This document shows, piece by piece, positions 41,993 through 51,502 of a DNA stretch of 54,430 bases. This DNA is from a virus (Duplodnaviria > Caudoviricetes). Every line of letters begins with the position of its first letter. The stretch's first letter is position 1. The position numbers and the translations under genes were made by a program. The notes beneath the pieces were generated by a model, which was given only the letters and a program-made list of their open reading frames with translations, had not been told where the DNA came from and did not search any database. The stretch lies in the IMG/VR virus record IMGVR_UViG_3300050011_000409, positions 1 to 54,430 of that record; one strand, given 5' to 3'.

Positions 41993-42582
41993 CTTGCAAC
42001 TAAGTGGGATTTTAAAGAGTTTTTGGGTGAGGTTGTCAAGAACAAAAGCATGGACAATCCTACTATCTTGAACCCAGCCTGATCTTGCTCAGGAGTTTAA
42101 GTCCTGTGAGTCTAAACAGAAACCCCAATGTTTAACACTGTTTCATTGAGAAACACTGGCGTTGTGCCACTGTTTGTGCCACTTCGTCGAGTCAAACCAT
42201 CAGAAGTTTAGGGAGTCTCCTTGCGCTCCGGGACCGTCTGGACGGGGTGGCAGCCGGTACCCGCTTCTGGCCGGCCGGGTCCTCATTCCATAAAGGAGGT
42301 GTTCCGAGAGAACGTGCTTCTGAGGTATTTCGTGCCCAAGGCAATGGAATTGGGTGTTTTGTGGGTGGGTAGGGAAACTCCCGGCCTGCCGAGGGTCTGG
42401 CCCGTTATTTATTCGCAATCCCTCCGGTGGAGTGTAAGCGGGCTGAAAGGGTTAGACTGTAAAGCAGCGCGGGATTGTCCTTGCGGTTCAATGTTTAACG
42501 AGCTGCCGCAGACCGTGCTTGCACGCTGTCGTCCCATGCTCGCGTCGTCCTTTGTGAAGGGGCGCCGATTTATGTCGCCGGC

Positions 42583-42918
42583 TCAATATCTGGCGCAGAC
42601 ACTACCGTAAGAAGTCCGGCGCAACCATTTCAGGTTTTCGGGCGGGATTCTTCTGCGAAAGTGAGCCTCGGCCTGCGCCTCGAAGGGCGCATCAATTTTC
42701 TCTTGTTCGTGATGATTTGAATGGCAAATGCCGCAAAGAACTTCCAAGTCGTTCACATCGCAGTCAAGCCAATGCCGCCTGTATCTGAGGTGATGGACTT
42801 CCAGATGATCGGTTCGACCGCAGCGGATGCATTTTCGACTGGCCAATTCGAGTTTCTTGGCTCGAAGCGCCTTCCAGTGGTCGGATTGCAGGTATTGCTT
42901 GTAGCTATGGAAGGCCAT
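42583..42918 (-). CDS. HNH endonuclease
   Basis: YLQSDHWKALR..CIRCG..LEVHHLRY..DLEVLCGICH. Confidence 0.88.
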   Translation of the reverse strand: MAFHSYKQYLQSDHWKALRAKKLELASRKCIRCGRTDHLEVHHLRYRRHWLDCDVNDLEVLCGICHSNHHEQEKIDAPFEAQAEAHFRRRIPPENLKWLRRTSYGSVCARY

Positions 42919-42924
42919 GGCGGG

Positions 42925-43046
42925 AAAAGGAAAAGGCACCGAGCCAAGACGATTGCGGCGACTTGTCCCTTGCGGGAAGCTCGGTGCCAAATTGTTACTC
43001 GCAATCGTCATGGGCAACCATAAATCATCCCGGGCGGAGTTGTCAA
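42925..43046 (-). ncRNA. Promoter plus pseudoknot/attenuator-type leader of an HNH gene
   Basis: TTGACA-18-TATGGT; gacgattgcg/cgcaatcgtc crossing ggcaccgagc/gctcggtgcc; GCAA tetraloop hairpin; U-tract. Confidence 0.55.
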
Positions 43047-43079
43047 GGGGATGATTTTGGTTTATCGTCTGGGGTAGCC

Positions 43080-43271
43080 ATGAACGACTACCCGCCACTT
43101 GACGTTGACTTTGACGATCTTCACGACCGATTGACGAAGAACGTCGGCAGGCCGATCAGTTTGGACGAATGGGGACTCATCATCACGGGGTTGAGAATAG
43201 GCAAATCCATTGTGATTCAGGGAGGAAAAATTTACTTGCGCGAAACCAGCGGTCACGATCTGGCCGCGTAA
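43080..43271 (+). CDS. Hypothetical protein (63 aa)
   Basis: ATG 43080, protein-like composition. Confidence 0.45.
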   Translation: MNDYPPLDVDFDDLHDRLTKNVGRPISLDEWGLIITGLRIGKSIVIQGGKIYLRETSGHDLAA

Positions 43272-43400
43272 AACGCTCCACGGCTCGATTTGCGCTCTGG
43301 GTGGTATCGTCCAGCGACCGGGGGGGTGAAAGTGGCGGGCGCGAAGGCTGGCGCGCGGCGTGCCCGGGCGTGGTCGAAGGTCGGGAGGGTGGGGGAGGGT

Positions 43401-44883
43401 TCATATTCCGGTTTGAATCATGACTCGGATGATTTCTTGCGCCACTTGTGGGACTATCGCGTTTCCCAGCCCGCGCAGGCGGTGTGCCCGATTGGGTATC
43501 CCATCAGCCACTCGTGGTGTTCCTACTTCCCATCCGTCACCCCAAGGTAAAGTTGAGGCATCTTGCCAGCGGGACATTTGCCATGCCTTTTGGCTGTGCT
43601 GTGCCAGAAGTCGTGACAGGGTTTGCAAAGTGTCTGGATATTCTCCGGCGCATTGTTGCTGATGTTTTGATCGAGATGATGCGCGTGAAGGCTTGTGGCC
43701 TGTCCGCAGGCTTCGCACGCCGCCTTTAAGTGTTTCCGCGCCCGATAGTGAAAGGTGCTCCAATGTTGTGCTGTTTTCTTCGAGCTTCCGCAAGAATGAG
43801 AGCAGTATTTCATCCGCAGAAATACGCTCCGATCTTCCAGCCGTCCATTGAACACCTTCCGCTTCAATTCCATTCCGCAAAAGCCGCAGAATTTCTTCGG
43901 GTCTGATTTTCTTTTTCTCCCCATACAATGAAATCATTCTATGGGATTCCACAAGCATTGTCAATCCACGTTTGTCCAACCGGGAGGATAACCCATCAGG
44001 GCGCAAACCCACTCCGGATTCAGGCTCCCACCGATTTCCGCATTCAGCAGTTTCGTGTTCCGCTCCATTTGCGATGGCGCGCCGTTGTTCTTCGCATCCT
44101 GCGCTGTTGGTGTCGGCCACAGCATCACCTCCCGAAGATTGCTCGGCTTGTTTTTTCGGTTGCGTTTGTCCGCTATCATTGCCTTGAGACTTTCTATTGA
44201 GCGCGGCGGCGTGCCGTCCTTCGTGTTCGGAGTCGGCCACAATTTCCCCGGCGCCCAGTTCGTTCGAGCCACTTCCGCTGTGGTCTTCGGCCCGTTGGTG
44301 TTCGCGTTTTTGTTTGGTGCCTGGTTTGAGGTCGGTGTTGGCACCAAGTATCCAAACCCTGTCTCGTCGGTGTCTGGCATCCACGGCGCAAGCCGGAATA
44401 ACAAGCGGCCACGCGGCGTAGCCGAGATTTTCCAAGTCAGAAAGCACACGGTCGAGTTCCATCGTGACGATTCCAGCAACATTCTCACCCAAGACGTAAG
44501 TGGGTTTTGACTCCGCAATAACGCGGCACATTTCAGGCCAGAGATGGCGGTCATCTTCCTTGCCCCTTCGCTTCCCGGCGACACTGAATGGCTGGCAAGG
44601 AAATCCCCCTGTGACAAGGTCGGCAGGGACGTTTCGTATATTTCGGATGTCTCCATAATTTTTGATTTCAGGCCAGTGCTTTTTCAGCACGGCGCATGAG
44701 TAAGGTTCGATTTCACTAAAGCCGATTGTTTTGAATCCGGCGGACGCCGCAGCCAGAGCGAAGCCGCCAATGAATCCCAGAGAACAGGTCTAGGTGAGTA
44801 GGCTTGTTCTCTGGGATTATGGAACCCCCTTTCTCTGTTGACTGTGACGCATTTTGAATTATATTTGTTCTATGGATGCTCAT
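43401..44883 (-). CDS. C5 cytosine DNA methyltransferase alpha subunit; motif I is split by a +1 frame change at 44772
   Basis: HLDLFSGI in the frame from ATG 44883; IGGFALAA, EIEPY, GDIR, GGFPCQPFS, ENV, HRRDRVWI and GNAIVPQ in the next frame. Confidence 0.85.
43523..43924 (-). CDS. HNH endonuclease nested in an alternative frame inside the methyltransferase gene
   Basis: CGFCG, KYCSHSC, CEACG..LHAHHLDQNISNNAPENIQTLCKPCH. Confidence 0.85.
   Translation of the reverse strand: MGRKRKSDPKKFCGFCGMELKRKVFNGRLEDRSVFLRMKYCSHSCGSSKKTAQHWSTFHYRARKHLKAACEACGQATSLHAHHLDQNISNNAPENIQTLCKPCHDFWHSTAKRHGKCPAGKMPQLYLGVTDGK
43936..43964 (-). promoter_or_regulatory. Near-consensus sigma70 promoter for the nested HNH
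   Basis: TTGACA-17-TAGAAT, 11 nt before ATG 43924; the -35 overlaps the beta-subunit stop. Confidence 0.75.
43961..44656 (-). CDS. Methyltransferase beta subunit (PTP repeats + motif IX-like) overlapping alpha in the +1 frame
   Basis: LVPTPT, LWPTPN, LWPTPT, then LNPEWVCALMGYPPGWT; alpha lacks motif IX. Confidence 0.78.
   Translation of the reverse strand: METSEIYETSLPTLSQGDFLASHSVSPGSEGARKMTAISGLKCAALLRSQNPLTSWVRMLLESSRWNSTVCFLTWKISATPRGRLLFRLAPWMPDTDETGFGYLVPTPTSNQAPNKNANTNGPKTTAEVARTNWAPGKLWPTPNTKDGTPPRSIESLKAMIADKRNRKNKPSNLREVMLWPTPTAQDAKNNGAPSQMERNTKLLNAEIGGSLNPEWVCALMGYPPGWTNVD
44773..44818 (-). promoter_or_regulatory. Perfect 14-bp stem-loop ending at the frame-change codon
   Basis: aatcccagagaaca (44773-86) / tgttctctgggatt (44805-18). 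Confidence 0.8.
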
Positions 44884-44884
44884 A

Positions 44885-45586
44885 TTAAACATTGCCGGGT
44901 TTCTGGTTGCCCGGAAAGCGTTTCGATATTTCTTCCAACGCCTCAACCAATTTCTGCTCGCGCAGATCCGCCTTCGCCAAAGCTTCAGCGTAAGCTAATC
45001 GCCAGCCACTTGGGTCTTTGGTTGCCTCGGCAAGTTCGCGCTCAAGTTGGCGGGCGAAATGCGCCCATTGTGTGCTTGGCGTATGGCTTGGTTCGTCAAA
45101 AAAAGCATCCGTCCTTGGCGTCGTCGTCGCAACTTCCCTATTGCTAGGTGGCTTTGGTGGATTTGGCGGCCCTGGAGGACGGTCATTTTTTGGTGGAATG
45201 TTTGGATTGACACGAAGCGACCGTATCATCGGCGTCGGTGTCGCGGCGTCGGCGATGTGTTTTACTATTGCAGCAATTCGCGGGTCGCTGCCAGTCATTT
45301 TCATTTCGCGATTGATGAAGGCGCACAGTTCGGCGTTTTCGCGCTGGCTGTAAAACAATTCCTTCTCCAATCCGCAAACGACACAGTTTCGCGCCAGCGT
45401 GCCGTGAATGCAATCGCGCGTCTGTCCCAGCGGGTGAAATTGCTGAACCCATTCGGTCGGTGTTTTGTCGTCGTTTTTCATAATGTTCATTTCATTGTGT
45501 GCTTTCTCGTCGGCGATTTGCTGCGCGCGGTCTTCGTCAACCGGCTCGCGAAGCGGTCCTGAAAACCTTGGCCAGTCCAGGCTCAT
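44885..45586 (-). CDS. Mosaic hypothetical protein
   Basis: CIHGTLARNCVVC, Pro-rich linker, TPRTD..FARQLEREL modules. Confidence 0.65.
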   Translation of the reverse strand: MSLDWPRFSGPLREPVDEDRAQQIADEKAHNEMNIMKNDDKTPTEWVQQFHPLGQTRDCIHGTLARNCVVCGLEKELFYSQRENAELCAFINREMKMTGSDPRIAAIVKHIADAATPTPMIRSLRVNPNIPPKNDRPPGPPNPPKPPSNREVATTTPRTDAFFDEPSHTPSTQWAHFARQLERELAEATKDPSGWRLAYAEALAKADLREQKLVEALEEISKRFPGNQKPGNV

Positions 45587-45807
45587 GTTTGTTCCTCGCA
45601 TTCTTCCAGAAGCGTCAGCATTTTTTCGCGGCTGATTGTGGGCACTGCTTTCTGGAAATACAACCAGAAGCCGTCTGGGTCTTTCTGGTGCGCCTCGACC
45701 GGGTGCGCCGAGCAGAACATTTCAAACGCGATTTGTTTGCACTGGTCTTCAGTTTCGTTGCCTGTCATTTCGATGAACATGGCCGTGCCTGATTGTTTCG
45801 AGCTCAT
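45583..45807 (-). CDS. Hypothetical protein
   Basis: Short stop/start overlaps on both sides. Confidence 0.6.
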   Translation of the reverse strand: MSSKQSGTAMFIEMTGNETEDQCKQIAFEMFCSAHPVEAHQKDPDGFWLYFQKAVPTISREKMLTLLEECEEQT

Positions 45808-46226
45808 TTTATTTGATCCAGGAATTCTTCAAAACTGAACACAACGAAATGTTTGTGGCCAAGTGCGAGCAGGACATGCTTGGTAACGGTCTGTTCTTTG
45901 TTCAGTTTTTCCCCCTCGCGCTTGCACTCCACCCAGAACGTGCGTGGTTGACCTACGTTCCCAGTCGGTGGCGCGGCGATGATAAAGTCCGTTACGCCAA
46001 GCTGTGTTGTGGTTGCCCTGTCCATTCGGCTGTGGACATAATACCATCGGCGCCGTTTCAGTTCGGCCTCAATTTGGTCGTGCAAATCGCTCTCGCGCTC
46101 AACCGGCTCGCCGGCGGACTGGTTGGGTGAGGCTTGAAATGGATTCCTGTCCCAAACGCCGGGACTGGTTTCGACGTAGCCCTTCGCCCGCATTTCCATA
46201 TCGAATGATTGTGGCGACTGGCTCAT
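45804..46226 (-). CDS. VRR-NUC domain nuclease
   Basis: ESDLHDQI, GVTDFII, WVECKREGEKLNKEQ. Confidence 0.85.
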   Translation of the reverse strand: MSQSPQSFDMEMRAKGYVETSPGVWDRNPFQASPNQSAGEPVERESDLHDQIEAELKRRRWYYVHSRMDRATTTQLGVTDFIIAAPPTGNVGQPRTFWVECKREGEKLNKEQTVTKHVLLALGHKHFVVFSFEEFLDQIK

Positions 46227-47998
46227 GTGAAAAATTCATCCGCCGCTCGCAGCGTCTCATTGTTTCGACCCACAATAACGCCGGCCGTTCGCAACGCTCC
46301 CAGGGCATTCTGTGTGCTGCCCGACCATTCGTATCCTGAAGTTTGTAAAAGTTCGTCGCGCGCCAGGCCGTTTGGGTTGTCAATCAAGCAGCGCAGCAAT
46401 GACCGCTCGCATTTCCCAAAGTGCGGGAAGGTAAGCCAGTAATTTCTGAATCCGTCGCCTTCAGGTAGTGGCTGGAAACTCCCGGAAGCCATTCCCGCTT
46501 CGGTGATTCTGATGAGACTGTTGTTTGCGCCTTCGACAAGTCCGAGCGACCGCAATTTTCCGAGCGCGTTTTGTGTGCTGCCGCTCCACGCATAGCCGGC
46601 GAGCAGAATCAATTTGCCGCGCGTGCAGCCTTCTGGATATTTGGCGACCACAGACAAAAGTGAACGCTCGCACTTGCCAAGTGGCGGATCAATGACTGGA
46701 AACTCGCCTCGATAGTCAGTGAATCCGTCGTCGCGTTTAAGTGGCAGGACTGGCCGGGGCGCGGCCGGCGCGATGAGTTTCGCCAGGCGTGTTTGCCCCG
46801 CTTCCTTTTGTGGCAACACCAAAAGTTTTCCGGCCAGCAGGTTCTTAAAAAAAACAAGCTCATCCCGCATTCCGTCCTTCGCAACAGAAAATAAATCCAT
46901 CAGGCTTCTGGCGGAATTGAATGTGGCGATAAATGTTTCGTGGGTGTCAATCAACTTCGTTAACCGCTTACGCTCGGCATCGGTCAACGCGGGAATGGTT
47001 TTTATTTCAACCGCTTGTGCAACTGGTTTTGAAATTTGCGGTTGTGCTTTAAGTTGAGTCTTCAGTGACCGTATCTCTTTCTTTAGCTCTAGGGGGTCGT
47101 TCTCCTTCGCTCTAGCTACTGTTGATTTTATCTGCTCGCCGAGTTTTTCCAAATCCACCAGAGCAACCTCTTTGGGTATCACAACCTGCTTGCCAACTTC
47201 AGGAGTAGAAGATGAATCAAATGTCCGGCGTTTTCGGATTTCAACTCGTTTGAAAATATCAAGCCATCCGGGAGACCAAAACCACGCTGTCCCGATTGGT
47301 AGTGATGCAAGGCTGTCGAAAAACTGTTCCTGCTTTGACTCTGAACCATGAACCTCAATCCACGCTTGCAACGCATCCCTGTCTTGTGGGGAGATGGTTC
47401 TCAATGCCACCAAGACCTCGATTTGTGTGAGCACATTCTTGTTGATGACCGCTGCCCGTTGGGTGATAAGCGTTACCCCCAGCCCGCGCGCTCGACCTCT
47501 GCGAACGATGTCCTCGAAGGCTCCGAGTAATCTTTCCTCACCCTTCATTGGTCGTTGTGGGGCAAATGCGTCAGCCTCGTCCACGAACAGGTGTAGCGGC
47601 TTTCGGTTAAGCCGATACAGTGTCTCCGCGAACGCTGTCATAAAACGAACCTGTGAGTTCTTCCGCAGTAGCGAGATGTCAAGGATGGCCGAGAATCCGT
47701 TTTCGACAACAGCACCGGCAATTATCTCGCCGGAATTTTCCTCAAGTGGAACATCTGCGCGTTCGCCACCAAACACAACAATGGGATAACCCGCACTCTT
47801 TCCATCAGCCGATGAGCGCAATCCCCACCAAACCCCAATTGGATCAGCTACAACGATCTGCTGTGATGCCTCCAGCATTTCCTCGGCCATCACTGCCCCA
47901 GTATAAGTTTTGCCAACCCCACGCTTGGCGAGAATAGCAAAGGTTTGAGTTACTGCCTCAAGTGGCAGGGAAAGAGAATGTGATATTTTTAATTGCAT
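46223..47998 (-). CDS. HerA/FtsK-like P-loop ATPase with two C-terminal winged-helix-like repeats
   Basis: AKRGVGKT, ADPIG, LFVDEAD, RRGRARGLG..ITQR; duplicated GKCERSLL..GYxWSGSTQNALGxLR. Confidence 0.85.
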   Translation of the reverse strand: MQLKISHSLSLPLEAVTQTFAILAKRGVGKTYTGAVMAEEMLEASQQIVVADPIGVWWGLRSSADGKSAGYPIVVFGGERADVPLEENSGEIIAGAVVENGFSAILDISLLRKNSQVRFMTAFAETLYRLNRKPLHLFVDEADAFAPQRPMKGEERLLGAFEDIVRRGRARGLGVTLITQRAAVINKNVLTQIEVLVALRTISPQDRDALQAWIEVHGSESKQEQFFDSLASLPIGTAWFWSPGWLDIFKRVEIRKRRTFDSSSTPEVGKQVVIPKEVALVDLEKLGEQIKSTVARAKENDPLELKKEIRSLKTQLKAQPQISKPVAQAVEIKTIPALTDAERKRLTKLIDTHETFIATFNSARSLMDLFSVAKDGMRDELVFFKNLLAGKLLVLPQKEAGQTRLAKLIAPAAPRPVLPLKRDDGFTDYRGEFPVIDPPLGKCERSLLSVVAKYPEGCTRGKLILLAGYAWSGSTQNALGKLRSLGLVEGANNSLIRITEAGMASGSFQPLPEGDGFRNYWLTFPHFGKCERSLLRCLIDNPNGLARDELLQTSGYEWSGSTQNALGALRTAGVIVGRNNETLRAADEFFT

Positions 47999-48456
47999 TG
48001 ATTCTTTCCCCTCCCGGTAAAATGGATTTTGGCATGTCGCACTCTGTCTGTTAATTGCAGATTGTTTGGTTTGTAATTATTCTTGTCCCCGTCTCTATGG
48101 TGAACAATGTCTTTGGGCGTGAGCCTTCTGCCAAATTTCCGTTCGGCAACAATTCTGTGGGCGTGTCGAGAACCGATTTTAGGATAGGACTTTCTGTGCT
48201 TGTTGTAATACTCCTTCCAACAATTCCAAGAACACCAAGACAATTTCCCGCGACGGGAAACTTCTGAATGACATCGAGAGAATTTTTTTACGCAGTTAGC
48301 ACAAACCAAATTCTCCTGCCGTCGCATTGCAAGCCCACGGCATTTCATTGAGCAATACTTTGTAGCCCCAGAATGCCGCAGCGTCTCTTTTGGCCTTCGC
48401 AAGAAGATTCGCCGGCACTTTTTACAGCGGAATTTTAAGCGCTTGACCCGGTTCAT
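47989..48456 (-). CDS. HNH homing endonuclease
   Basis: Cys motifs, HAHRIVAE..IVHHRDGDKNNYKPNNL; promoter TTGACA-17-TAGCCT-7-ATG. Confidence 0.88.
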   Translation of the reverse strand: MNRVKRLKFRCKKCRRIFLRRPKETLRHSGATKYCSMKCRGLAMRRQENLVCANCVKKFSRCHSEVSRRGKLSWCSWNCWKEYYNKHRKSYPKIGSRHAHRIVAERKFGRRLTPKDIVHHRDGDKNNYKPNNLQLTDRVRHAKIHFTGRGKNQCN

Positions 48457-48520
48457 TTGATTAAGGCTAACAATGAAGGCTTGTATTGTCAACTGCCAAG
48501 AAGGATTCTGTTTTTCATGT

Positions 48521-48604
48521 TCATTGCTGCCTCCAAGTCTTGAAGCCAATCAGGGCCAGCACAATCACTGTGAGCACGATGGCGATTGTTTCGTTGGCGG
48601 TCAT
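48521..48604 (-). CDS. 27-aa membrane peptide (MTANETIAIVLTVIVLALIGFKTWRQQ)
   Basis: Single hydrophobic helix; fills an operon gap. Confidence 0.45.
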   Translation of the reverse strand: MTANETIAIVLTVIVLALIGFKTWRQQ

Positions 48605-48616
48605 ATTTTTATCAAG

Positions 48617-48715
48617 TTAATCGGACGCGACCACGGCGCCGATGGCCGACAACAGGCCGGTCAAGGCTAATCCCGCCGTGCAGCTTTTGAATCTATCGTC
48701 GCGCCCGAAATTCAT
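48617..48715 (-). CDS. 32-aa hydrophobic peptide
   Basis: ATGA overlap with the primase-helicase stop. Confidence 0.4.
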   Translation of the reverse strand: MNFGRDDRFKSCTAGLALTGLLSAIGAVVASD

Positions 48716-50325
48716 ACTGGTTCAGTTGTCCGCTCGGTTATTAACATTTTTGCACCATCGAAATTGCATTTGACCCGCGTTCCGCTTCCGCCCTTTGTGG
48801 ATTTCAAAACCTTCAAGTGCATCAAGGTCGAATCATCCTTGTCGCGCCATGCACCGATAAGCAGCCCGCAGGAATTCTCAATCGAACCGCTTTCCTTTGC
48901 GGAATGCAACGCGATTTCCTTCGAGTCTTCCGTCGGTCTTCGCACCTGTGATGCCGCAATAATGATTGTCCGTGTCGTCTTGGCCAGCACTTTCAAACCC
49001 TCGGCTACATCTGAAATCCGCTCGCGCCGGTTCGCCCCGTCCGCGCCGACAAGTTGGAGGTAATCAATCAGGACGAGTTTCGGCTTGCAGCCCATTTTTA
49101 ATTCGCTTCGTAGGATGTAGTTTTCAAAGTCTGCCAGTGTCAATCTTGATTGCGTGCAAATGAAAAAGTTTCTGAACTCCACTCCAAGCCCTTCCCCGAT
49201 CACTTCGCCGCGCTGGTAGGCGGATTCAACATCTCGGCAATCCAGCCTGTATTGAGCCGCCACGGAACGCTCGAATAAAAGTTCGGGTGGCAGTTCCAAC
49301 TCAAACAGGAGCGTCGGAATTGGGCGTGCGCTCTTGGCGATGGCGGAGAGAATCCCAGTCTTGCCAGCGCCGGTGTCACCAATGAAGAAAACCAGTTCGC
49401 CAGGAATCAGTGGGCGGATGTATCGTCCCAGAGTCGGCAACCATTTCCCAAGATCAAATGAGTTTTGTGCCTGGCTTTGGATGAGCCGAAGATAATTCGG
49501 CTCGATCTCGCCCATTGTGTAAATCGGCAACTTGACGCCCTTGAAGAACGGGTGGGCATTTGAAAACAGTTCCTCGATGGCGGCTTTGGATTCGTTCTCG
49601 GATTTGAAAGAGGCGATGAAATCTGAAATGTCCTTCGTGGTCTTTGGCAGCTTGACGATTCGCACGGACTTCGCTTTGCCGCACACGGATTCAAAAACAA
49701 GGTCAACATGCTTTTGTCCCGGCTCGTCGGTGTCGCCGCAGATTACCACCTCCTTATCGCAAAGCGTTTCCGTGTAGGCGTCCAGCCACTTGCCCGCGCC
49801 GCCGACGTTGCACGTTGCGACAATCCCAAGTTCCGCCAGATTGTCCGCGTCTTTCTCGCCTTCAACGATCCACACAATCGGACTTTTCAAAACTTCGGGC
49901 AGGTGATAAATAAATCGCTCAACTCCGTCCATGCTCCAAATCCAATTCCCGTCCACTTGATGCCGCTGACGGAAGGATTTCGGCTTGAGCCTCACCACTT
50001 GATAGGCTTCCTGACCCGTGTGTTTTTGGTAGGAATAAATCTTTTCGATCACCGGCTTCTCGGTTGTCGCATGTGCGTTGCTGGCCGGGACAGCGAACGG
50101 CCTGGCCGGTTCTTCTGGGAATAGGTCTTTCATTTTCAATCCCAGTGCCGCCACAACGGATTCAGTCGGACAATTCGCAAAGCATTTCAAAAGAATTTTC
50201 CCGTCGCCTGCCCTGCGAACTTGGAGCGATGGGGATGAGTCGTCGTGGGCTGGACATCTTACCAGCCATCCGACGGCGGTTTTCTGCCGCTTCTCAAACT
50301 TGGCAATGAAGTCGTCGAAAGTCAT
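48712..50325 (-). CDS. Primase-helicase (Zn finger, TOPRIM, DnaB-like SF4 helicase)
   Basis: CPAHDD..CFANC, IVEGEKD, GDTDEPG, GDTGAGKT, LIDYLQL, ASQVRR, KESGSIE. Confidence 0.93.
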   Translation of the reverse strand: MTFDDFIAKFEKRQKTAVGWLVRCPAHDDSSPSLQVRRAGDGKILLKCFANCPTESVVAALGLKMKDLFPEEPARPFAVPASNAHATTEKPVIEKIYSYQKHTGQEAYQVVRLKPKSFRQRHQVDGNWIWSMDGVERFIYHLPEVLKSPIVWIVEGEKDADNLAELGIVATCNVGGAGKWLDAYTETLCDKEVVICGDTDEPGQKHVDLVFESVCGKAKSVRIVKLPKTTKDISDFIASFKSENESKAAIEELFSNAHPFFKGVKLPIYTMGEIEPNYLRLIQSQAQNSFDLGKWLPTLGRYIRPLIPGELVFFIGDTGAGKTGILSAIAKSARPIPTLLFELELPPELLFERSVAAQYRLDCRDVESAYQRGEVIGEGLGVEFRNFFICTQSRLTLADFENYILRSELKMGCKPKLVLIDYLQLVGADGANRRERISDVAEGLKVLAKTTRTIIIAASQVRRPTEDSKEIALHSAKESGSIENSCGLLIGAWRDKDDSTLMHLKVLKSTKGGSGTRVKCNFDGAKMLITERTTEPV

Positions 50326-51073: not shown

Positions 51074-51397
51074 TCACGCCATTTCCTCCATTGCCTCACT
51101 GAATAGGCGATTGGCGACGATTTCCAGCCGCAGCGTTGGCACGTTCTTGAGAGAAAGCCGGATTGCGTCAATGATTTTGTCCGTTAATTCCTGACGCTCT
51201 TTGTGGCAGTTCTCGCAGAGAGTTTGATAAACGTCATCAGGATAATCCCATGGGTCGCGCCTGGCGTAAAGCAAGTGATGGACTTGAAGATTCGATTGCG
51301 AATCACCACAGGAACAGCATTGCCAGTTGTCGCGTTCGAGTATTTGAAGCCGTTTTTTTTGCCACTGCGGGCTGCGAAGTTTTTCCGTGTAGGTCAT
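51074..51397 (-). CDS. HNH endonuclease
   Basis: YTEKLRSPQWQKKRLQILERD..CCSCG..LQVHH..TLCENCH. Confidence 0.88.
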   Translation of the reverse strand: MTYTEKLRSPQWQKKRLQILERDNWQCCSCGDSQSNLQVHHLLYARRDPWDYPDDVYQTLCENCHKERQELTDKIIDAIRLSLKNVPTLRLEIVANRLFSEAMEEMA

Positions 51398-51502
51398 AAA
51401 TTATAAAATCATTTCGGGAAGGCTCTCATTTTCCGTGCGCGCTGTCAACAATTTTTTTTGCGCCCGCATTCCCGCCGGGCCTAAAATTTTGTAAAAAAAG
51501 AT

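Follow-up and report, generated by a model that had tools for sequence, protein, structure and literature searches.

The stretch of DNA analysed here, referred to as the window, is the complete virus record IMGVR_UViG_3300050011_000409, 54,430 bp in length and with direct terminal repeats. Within a block of DNA-metabolism genes on its minus strand, a locus was found in which the genes for the two polypeptides of a predicted C5 cytosine methyltransferase, alpha and beta, and the gene for an HNH protein occupy the same DNA. This arrangement most probably goes back to the invasion of a two-polypeptide phage C5 methyltransferase by an HNH homing endonuclease gene of the free-standing type, which came to lie out of frame between the methylase motifs IX and X. 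A preliminary description, prepared from the sequence alone, had listed the features of the locus; all of them are present where they had been placed, and all are located on the minus strand, as are the other features mentioned below.

The alpha frame (43401..44789) runs without a stop codon from 44789 to 43404, which corresponds to 462 codons or 1386 nt and agrees with the more than 1.3 kb given in the preliminary description, and is closed by a stop at 43401-43403. The open reading frame (ORF) listed for alpha, 43401..44690, specifies 429 aa and starts with the GTG at 44690, the first ordinary start codon of the frame. In a Pfam scan, alpha matched the C5 cytosine methyltransferase family PF00145 over profile positions 39-197 with 112.6 bits (gathering cut-off 22; E 3.4e-32), and no family besides this one was detected. 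Motifs IV (GGFPCQPFS), VI (GENVAG), VIII (HRRDRVW), and X (GNAIVPQ) are present in the alpha frame and show little or no variation among 14 homologues; PCQ, ENV, RxR, and GNAxxP, respectively, are the signatures which we take to define these motifs in C5 methylases. Motif VIII is followed by about 270 residues without any methylase motif, shadowing beta and the HNH gene, and then by a pre-X stretch and motif X (43446..43466), which is located downstream of the HNH gene. Many homologues of alpha, 420-530 aa in size, share an insert between the conserved stretches W..EP.VG and RVA.G.P.R..RL.GLGNA, whereas others, for example P0007, P0013, and P0015, are devoid of it. A fold model of alpha based on 14 sequences reached a mean pLDDT of 48, with residues 122-238 below 30 and predicted to be disordered; helices of moderate confidence were placed at 243-318 and 355-376 in the otherwise low-confidence insert. 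With this mean pLDDT, the model is not strong enough to be used in a fold search.

Beta (43961..44656, 231 aa) is encoded in the +1 frame within alpha and contains a region resembling a target recognition domain (TRD), with three PTP repeats, and motif IX, LNPEWVCALMGYPPGWT. That such a protein is nested in alpha had been recognized in the preliminary description, and the gene is substantiated by a match to phrog_1008, 'DNA methyltransferase' (E 2.3e-34, residues 13-229), by its conservation, and by the annotation of its counterpart in Paenibacillus phage Shelly. No family was detected in a Pfam scan of beta, and no PDB entry was matched in a profile search up to an E of 1. Using tblastn, beta was found in 72 phage records, 54 of them from Paenibacillus phages, with about 41% identity over the full length, and alpha matched the same places in the other frame. 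Among the fetched loci, 73 distinct ORFs specify beta homologues, irrespective of the presence of the HNH gene. The conserved TRD-like region is part of beta, and the alpha stretch between motifs VIII and X is a shadow of beta and the HNH gene.

When alpha and beta were modelled as a complex, a score of 0.78 was obtained, the best of three controls reaching 0.00; this mark is attained by 58 out of 80 solved complexes and by 2 out of 110 mismatched pairs. The runs agreed in at least 57% of the contacts, and the partners had a pLDDT of at least 60. Contacts in the model are made by residues 75-123 and 368-428 of alpha and by residues 51-107 and 208-231 of beta, and the alpha stretch 124-367 is not involved. 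The model supports the predicted binding of the two polypeptides, but since solved structures of single-chain C5 methylases exist, the result may show likeness to these structures rather than binding.

The HNH gene (43523..43924, 133 aa) follows beta in the same frame, with two stop codons in between, and is located entirely inside the alpha frame, just as it had been described. The deduced protein consists of an N-terminal zinc ribbon (CxxC...CSxxC) and the core CEACG..HAHH..N..NIQTLCxxCHxFWH. Residues C70, C73, H82, H83, N95, C100, H104, and H108 are invariant among 30 sequences, and C103 nearly so. Homologues were detected in 101 protein clusters and in 130 stretches of viral contigs. The protein is a putative nuclease. 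It is similar to an HNH family in PHROG (best value 3.5e-7), and in a profile search against the PDB it matched the HNH domain of IscB (E 4.3e-4), but its score with the Pfam family HNH is below the cut-off (see below). The fold model reached a pLDDT of 86. With the exception of DotN, the ten best matches listed by Foldseek for this model are HNH nucleases (phage T5 SciA, Cas5-HNH, McrA, Cap5), all at E of at least 0.024.

Three relatives of the HNH gene deserve mention here. One of them, on a contig of an uncultured Rhizobiaceae (L092:2974-3435), specifies a protein of 153 aa with 48% identity and is free-standing rather than nested. It is flanked by two methylase-like genes that are not of the C5 type and by a primase gene, and possibly depicts the element before its entry into a gene. 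The other two, in Staphylococcus phage CUB-EPI_14 gp45 (L214:642-2447) and in Komagataeibacter phage phiKX1 (L002:1501-2874), are nested homologues that are not annotated in the records, and the methylase region of phiKX1 is annotated as three hypothetical proteins.

To assess the open alpha frame, the best 80 of the 130 viral stretches retrieved by HNH similarity and 13 genome loci were fetched. Together with the window, 88 loci were obtained in which the HNH relative is full-length, and 75 of these loci are distinct. Synonymous shuffling, by which HNH protein and codon usage were preserved, did not leave the alpha frame of the window free of stops in any of 2000 shuffles, the mean being 6.3 stops. 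Over all loci, 4.9 stops were expected on average from such shuffles, with a median P(0) of 0.0015. The frame of motif X, however, contains no stop across the HNH gene in 72 of the 75 distinct loci. The exceptions are L035 and L066, where the one stop encountered is that of alpha itself, behind motif X, and the free-standing L092 with eight stops. The third frame is open in none of the 75. The same picture was obtained at the level of codon junctions: HNH codons ending in T were never found before a codon beginning with AA, AG, or GA (0 of 2491), while they were found in 1532 of 6647 cases (23%) before other codons. Across the same bases, pairwise identities average 53% in the HNH frame and 31% in the alpha frame, and the HNH frame is the more similar one in 2626 out of 2628 pairs. 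As conservation resides in the HNH frame, the demand on the alpha-frame product is mainly for openness and not for any given sequence. The comparisons show that the open alpha frame across the HNH gene is not due to chance and support the conclusion that the host frame is held open by selection. The preliminary description had supposed that alpha is kept free of stops at this place and had named stops in homologues as an observation that would speak against it; the counts given above speak in favor of its supposition. The HNH region of one locus, L058, is identical to those of L059 and L061, but the frame of motif X is already closed before it (250 versus 434 aa open), and this locus may contain a broken copy of alpha.

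The HNH gene was encountered in different architectures of the host gene. In the first, which is that of the window, motifs I to VIII and motif X are specified by one frame and beta is nested. In the second, represented for example by L016, a separate alpha' with motifs I to VIII overlaps by 535 nt the start of a longer protein in another frame, which comprises TRD, motif IX, insert, and motif X. This second arrangement was noted at L016:2057-3473 and in about 20 similar loci, and its family is large, with matches in at least 597 stretches of viral contigs. The host gene of Staphylococcus phage CUB-EPI_14 is annotated as a C5 methylase of 601 aa. In all architectures, the HNH gene is positioned between motifs IX and X and in a constant frame relation to motif X.

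The distribution of the HNH gene among related methylases is patchy. In loci around P0007 and P0013, which were fetched regardless of HNH, it is present in 2 of 94 distinct cases, and among 64 judgeable loci around the catalytic part of L016 it was detected in a single one, the contig of L016 itself. In a tree of 155 catalytic domains calculated with FastTree, 63 from loci with and 92 from loci without the HNH gene, 15 changes between presence and absence were counted, compared to a mean of 49 with shuffled labels, and at least six of the 15 are forced by branches with at least 95% support. The window belongs to a clade of nine rows with 97% support, eight of which are without HNH. A second tree with 104 rows showed eight changes, at least three of them forced.

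The locus of the window is also a mosaic. In a sliding blastn scan of 120 nt against 199 fetched loci, the segments 44823-44224 and 43563-43444 matched best to alleles without HNH (L102, L171-L174; 79-92%). For 44163-43984, the best matches were HNH-bearing loci (L041, L026), and 43923-43504 matched HNH-bearing loci only. The acquired block can be placed approximately at 43504..44163 (about 650 nt) and comprises the last TRD segment, motif IX, the stop, and the HNH gene. Directly behind the stop codon of the HNH gene, the beta frame contains a relic of the earlier 3' end of beta (43454..43522). It reads ..EWLMGYPIGHT.., similar to a motif IX, followed by a stop, and the same bases specify the pre-X stretch RVADGIPNRAHRL in the alpha frame. 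The relic matches the true beta end of L102, a compact allele without HNH from a Verrucomicrobiota metagenome-assembled genome, in which the beta end ..LNPEWVEWLMGYPIGHT..SETPS.. shares its bases with ..EPGVGRVADGIPNRPHRL..GNAIVPQ of alpha. The working motif IX of beta in the window, on the other hand, precedes the HNH gene and is located inside the foreign block. The block thus provided a new beta end, with the old one remaining as a relic, and this accounts for the two related peptides that had been noted to bracket the HNH gene, which are real and homologous. Judged from these comparisons, the HNH block is a mobile, foreign insertion.

A fresh target-site duplication was considered for the bracketing copies and rejected, because they share only the short DNA core CTGATGGG.TA.CC...CGG; by this measure, the copy is old or independently derived and not a recent duplication. 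Also rejected was the idea that motif IX of beta always overlaps the pre-X stretch of alpha, since the overlap is present in compact alleles such as L102 but not in Paenibacillus phage Shelly. Two further loci, L013 with and L213 without the HNH gene, are about 95% identical in motifs I to VIII and again from motif X on. The whole segment from the TRD to the HNH gene is unlike, and the TRD segments are unrelated, so that flanking TRD sequence travels with the nuclease. With a swapped segment of this extent between nearly identical flanks, the pair was discarded as a source of clean insertion ends.

From these data, the following course of events is considered the most probable one. Translation of beta would begin at an internal start in the +1 frame, and beta would contribute motif IX along with the TRD. 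The HNH block would have entered a compact allele in which the 3' end of beta overlapped the pre-X and X codons of alpha, and it would have carried its own copy of the beta end, that is motif IX and a stop. Because the block brought its own beta end, beta would now terminate before the HNH gene, and the old end would have been left behind it. Ribosomes translating alpha would read straight through the HNH DNA in the other frame and thereby add a loop of about 135 residues to alpha, away from the alpha-beta interface, and selection purges every alpha-frame stop codon within the HNH gene. The HNH protein would be made separately, in the window probably from an internal promoter and a nearly leaderless message, in many relatives apparently by coupling to the stop of beta. 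A more far-reaching proposal is that the block constitutes a self-compensating homing element for doubly coding DNA, which invades the overlap of the methylase subunit genes with a replacement for the 3' end of beta and from which alpha-frame stops have been purged. We put this forward tentatively and rate its chances slightly below even. If it were true, neither host protein would be lost upon insertion, and splicing would not be needed. Homing nucleases would then have a general and widespread third way, besides introns and inteins, to reside inside genes. This way would be found across C5 methylases of many phyla, with a layout distantly related to that of the ShiLan nuclease in N6/N4 methylases.

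Signals for expression of the HNH gene were inspected in the window and in its relatives. The sequence TTGACA-17-TAGAAT (43936..43964), to which the preliminary description had drawn attention because it overlaps the stop codon of beta, is indeed present, with the TGA of beta (43961-43963) contained in the -35 hexamer. It is the best of five promoter-like sites in 42500..45700, with 11 of 12 matches, and shuffled sequences yielded 1.5 sites on average. Between the -10 hexamer and the ATG of the HNH gene lie 11 nt, so that the predicted message would be nearly leaderless, and a Shine-Dalgarno sequence is missing in the window. Among 71 distinct loci, the preceding in-frame stop is no more than 12 nt away from the HNH start in 49, and GGAG or GAGG is present at -20 to -3 in 27, often within the last codons of beta. 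Promoter-like sites with at least 10 of 12 matches precede the HNH gene in seven of the 71 loci, including the window, versus none in 213 control windows inside HNH genes. Since such sites are common to a subgroup of relatives, it is plausible that the HNH gene has its own promoter.

Several observations weigh against the proposed invasion by a homing endonuclease gene. The HNH protein of the window scored 18.1 bits with the Pfam family HNH (PF01844), below the cut-off of 21.4, and its fold matches are weak, with E of at least 0.024 for all ten listed. With the poor model of alpha alone (mean pLDDT 48), the predicted loop is drawn mainly from the model of the complex. The trees are quick FastTree trees of about 170 columns, and HNH-bearing rows were gathered by HNH similarity. 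For this reason, the raw number of 15 changes is soft, and more trust is placed in the six forced changes and in the samples taken blind to HNH. Part of the patchiness may also stem from general swapping of TRDs, as in L013 and L213, and not from homing driven by the nuclease.

Another point of this kind concerns motif I (FxGxGG), which serves in the binding of S-adenosylmethionine. Alignment to the intact homologues P0007, P0013, P0015, and L102 revealed four extra bases at about 44769-44775, by which the motif is split between two frames. Its first half is found in a detached 5' piece of alpha (44716..44883), which begins with the ATG at 44883, reads ..KPTHLDLFSGI, and then continues off-frame to a stop; DLFSGI is thus part of the ORF 44716..44946, whereas GGFALAA.. 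is in the alpha frame, where no ordinary start codon is available upstream of this remainder. The designation as a methylase gene in the preliminary description is upheld by motifs IV, VI, VIII, and X, but the 4-nt frameshift in motif I had been overlooked. The lesion is contained in contigs of two independent runs from other studies, X2 (44438-44960) and X4 (44426-44784), with 0 differences. Because both contigs carry identical bases, the frameshift is a real lesion of the phage lineage and not an assembly slip, and the methylase of this phage may be dead. As alpha of the window is without an in-frame motif I, selection for a working read-through alpha cannot act now in this phage unless alpha is rescued by a frameshift.

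The most probable alternative is one in which the locus of the window is a decaying pseudogene, with alpha dead, the HNH protein and perhaps beta still of importance, and an open frame that is inherited and not maintained. In view of a frameshift confirmed by at least two further runs and of the missing start upstream of the remainder of motif I, this possibility is given nearly an even chance. Besides the one lesion, however, alpha with its 462 codons, beta, and the HNH gene are intact, which suggests that the loss of alpha is recent or compensated. Moreover, decay would concern the copy of the window only, and the family-wide evidence is untouched by it.

It is improbable that the HNH protein acts as a working partner of the methylase in a compact restriction-modification-like or anti-host module, which would cut unmarked DNA of the host or of competing phages and in which nesting would keep the genes linked. 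Such a module would fit with 74 of the 75 distinct HNH loci being inside methylase genes of this family, with the free-standing gene of L092 adjoining two other methylase genes, and with the label 'McrA', a generic one, given to two homologues by one JGI source. But the small number of close methylase relatives equipped with the HNH gene, 2 of 94 and 1 of 64, implies that the methylase does not need it. The HNH gene is also intact while alpha is frameshifted in motif I, a situation in which cutting of unmethylated phage DNA should be harmful, and with its foreign flanks the block has the behavior of an insertion. The preliminary description had left the choice between homing and a restriction-modification-like unit; the former is supported, and the latter is the weaker alternative. 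Still less credible is removal of the block before the protein stage by a group I or group II intron or an intein-like splice, which would render the open alpha frame irrelevant: group I introns of phages often carry HNH genes, and like introns and inteins the block is situated between conserved motifs, two in this case, but no Rfam family was detected at E up to 1 over 42900..45100 on both strands, the 402-nt HNH ORF fills the stretch between the beta stop and pre-X so that a ribozyme core could not be accommodated, the HNH gene cannot be an intein because it is out of frame with alpha, and a spliced element would not need the stop avoidance seen in the family. The invasion of the methylase by an HNH gene without intron or intein, as assumed in the preliminary description, is supported by these results and by the patchy occurrence and the mosaic allele.

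The principle of a hidden out-of-frame HNH gene is already published. For the ShiLan domain (Arsenault, Gosselin and Gogarten 2025), the main account describes an out-of-frame HNH gene in mycobacteriophage DNA methylases, with an open host frame, no intron or intein signature, and a disjunct distribution which is read by the authors as homing (PMC11855218). The domain had been described earlier as an enigmatic insert (PMC9957025), and gp54/gp55 of Applejack are annotated as an arrangement of this type (PMC12613952). As far as the published description goes, the window shares with ShiLan an HNH ORF with flanking zinc fingers in another frame of a phage methylase gene, the stop-free host frame, the missing intron and intein signatures, and the disjunct distribution among related methylases. 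The in-frame product of ShiLan is predicted there to form a loop of poor order in which a small part is helical, and the alpha insert with its helices at 243-318 and 355-376 looks alike. The HNH protein of the window and Applejack gp55 are 29% identical over 107 residues (pairwise E 5e-6) and have the same zinc-ribbon-plus-HNH layout. In a tblastn search of 50,697 phage records with the HNH protein of the window, ShiLan-type genes were not found at E up to 1e-3.

There are also differences. The host of ShiLan and of the Applejack gene is an N6/N4 methylase (PF01555), while that of the window is a C5 methylase (PF00145), and the ShiLan nuclease comprises 195-208 aa compared to 133 aa here. In the window, the host gene is itself a nested two-subunit gene, so that one stretch of DNA serves three proteins, and with the insert comes a new end by which that of the nested beta is replaced. 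The parts of the ShiLan paper that were compared, its supplements not among them, contain neither stop-avoidance statistics nor a metagenome-wide survey (PMC11855218). In a literature search, which did not cover supplements possibly listing C5 cases, no report of an element of this kind was found for C5 methylases or for methylases made of two subunits. What is novel here is the C5 class of the methylase, the host gene being nested itself, the compensating replacement of the beta end, and a large family across phyla with a clean signature of stop avoidance.

A nested methylase subunit is known from M.EcoHK31I, for which an alpha polypeptide with motifs I to VIII, motif X, and the TRD and a beta polypeptide with motif IX only, encoded in another frame, are described (PMC2836561). 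Like beta of the window, that of M.EcoHK31I contains motif IX and is specified in an alternative frame that lies wholly within the coding region of alpha, and no HNH insert is mentioned in the passages compared (PMC2836561). The parallel drawn in the preliminary description holds in this respect, at the level of the published description. It does not extend to the TRD, because the whole TRD-like region with its PTP repeats is in beta (231 aa) and not in alpha here. Homologues of both frames are gp55 and gp56, the 'g55 internal gene', of Paenibacillus larvae phage Shelly, which are annotated as a nested pair. Identity to the Shelly counterparts amounts to 41.5% for beta, over 100% of the length, and to 38.8% for residues 1-240 of alpha. 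Unlike the window, Shelly is without an HNH gene, and its alpha, 345 aa in size, ends 149 nt past the stop of beta; unlike in the compact alleles, motif IX of its beta does not overlap pre-X of alpha. A literature search on the methyltransferase internal gene of Paenibacillus larvae phages did not retrieve a paper.

Classical free-standing homing genes sit between genes. The HNH gene of the window resembles the free-standing HNH homing endonuclease genes of phages in being small, in having its own start signals, in its patchy occurrence, and in the movement of flanking host sequence along with it, but it differs by its position inside overlapping coding sequence, where a second frame must stay open.

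The findings imply that hidden HNH genes without splicing are not an oddity of a few mycobacteriophages but constitute a large family that resides in the C5 methylases of both phages and prophages, in many bacterial groups. The absence of T-ending codons before AA, AG, and GA provides a clear sequence signature of selection on a read-through frame, and the locus represents a natural case of three proteins specified by one stretch of DNA. Isolated phages with such loci are available, namely Staphylococcus phage CUB-EPI_14 and the Komagataeibacter phages phiKX1 and phiKX2. As the missing HNH annotation in CUB-EPI_14 and the three hypothetical proteins in place of the phiKX1 methylase illustrate, these loci are overlooked or mis-split by gene callers.

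In the minus-strand block, the methylase locus is preceded upstream by a gene without assigned function (44885..45601), and the block also contains genes for a resolvase-like nuclease (45804..46226), an ATPase (46223..47998), and a primase/helicase (48712..50325). A contig of run X4 with a low depth (2.9) joins position 43556 to 44913 and skips 1356 nt, nearly the whole methylase locus. At the junction, the 3' end of the gene upstream of the locus is brought next to the pre-X stretch, and unlike sequence follows; the contig may be derived from a relative without the methylase or may be chimeric. In addition to the nested HNH gene, the phage contains at least three HNH-type genes, all on the minus strand. 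One is located directly downstream of the methylase (42583..43098; PF01844 20.5 bits; PHROG HNH 1e-10), one beside the ATPase gene (47989..48549; PHROG HNH 1.3e-10), and a weak HNH-type match with an internal TAA was noted at 51200..51490. A promoter-like site, TTGACA-18-TATGGT with 10 of 12 matches, lies at 43046..43017 inside the ORF listed for the downstream HNH gene, and because of this position the true start of that gene may be an internal ATG.

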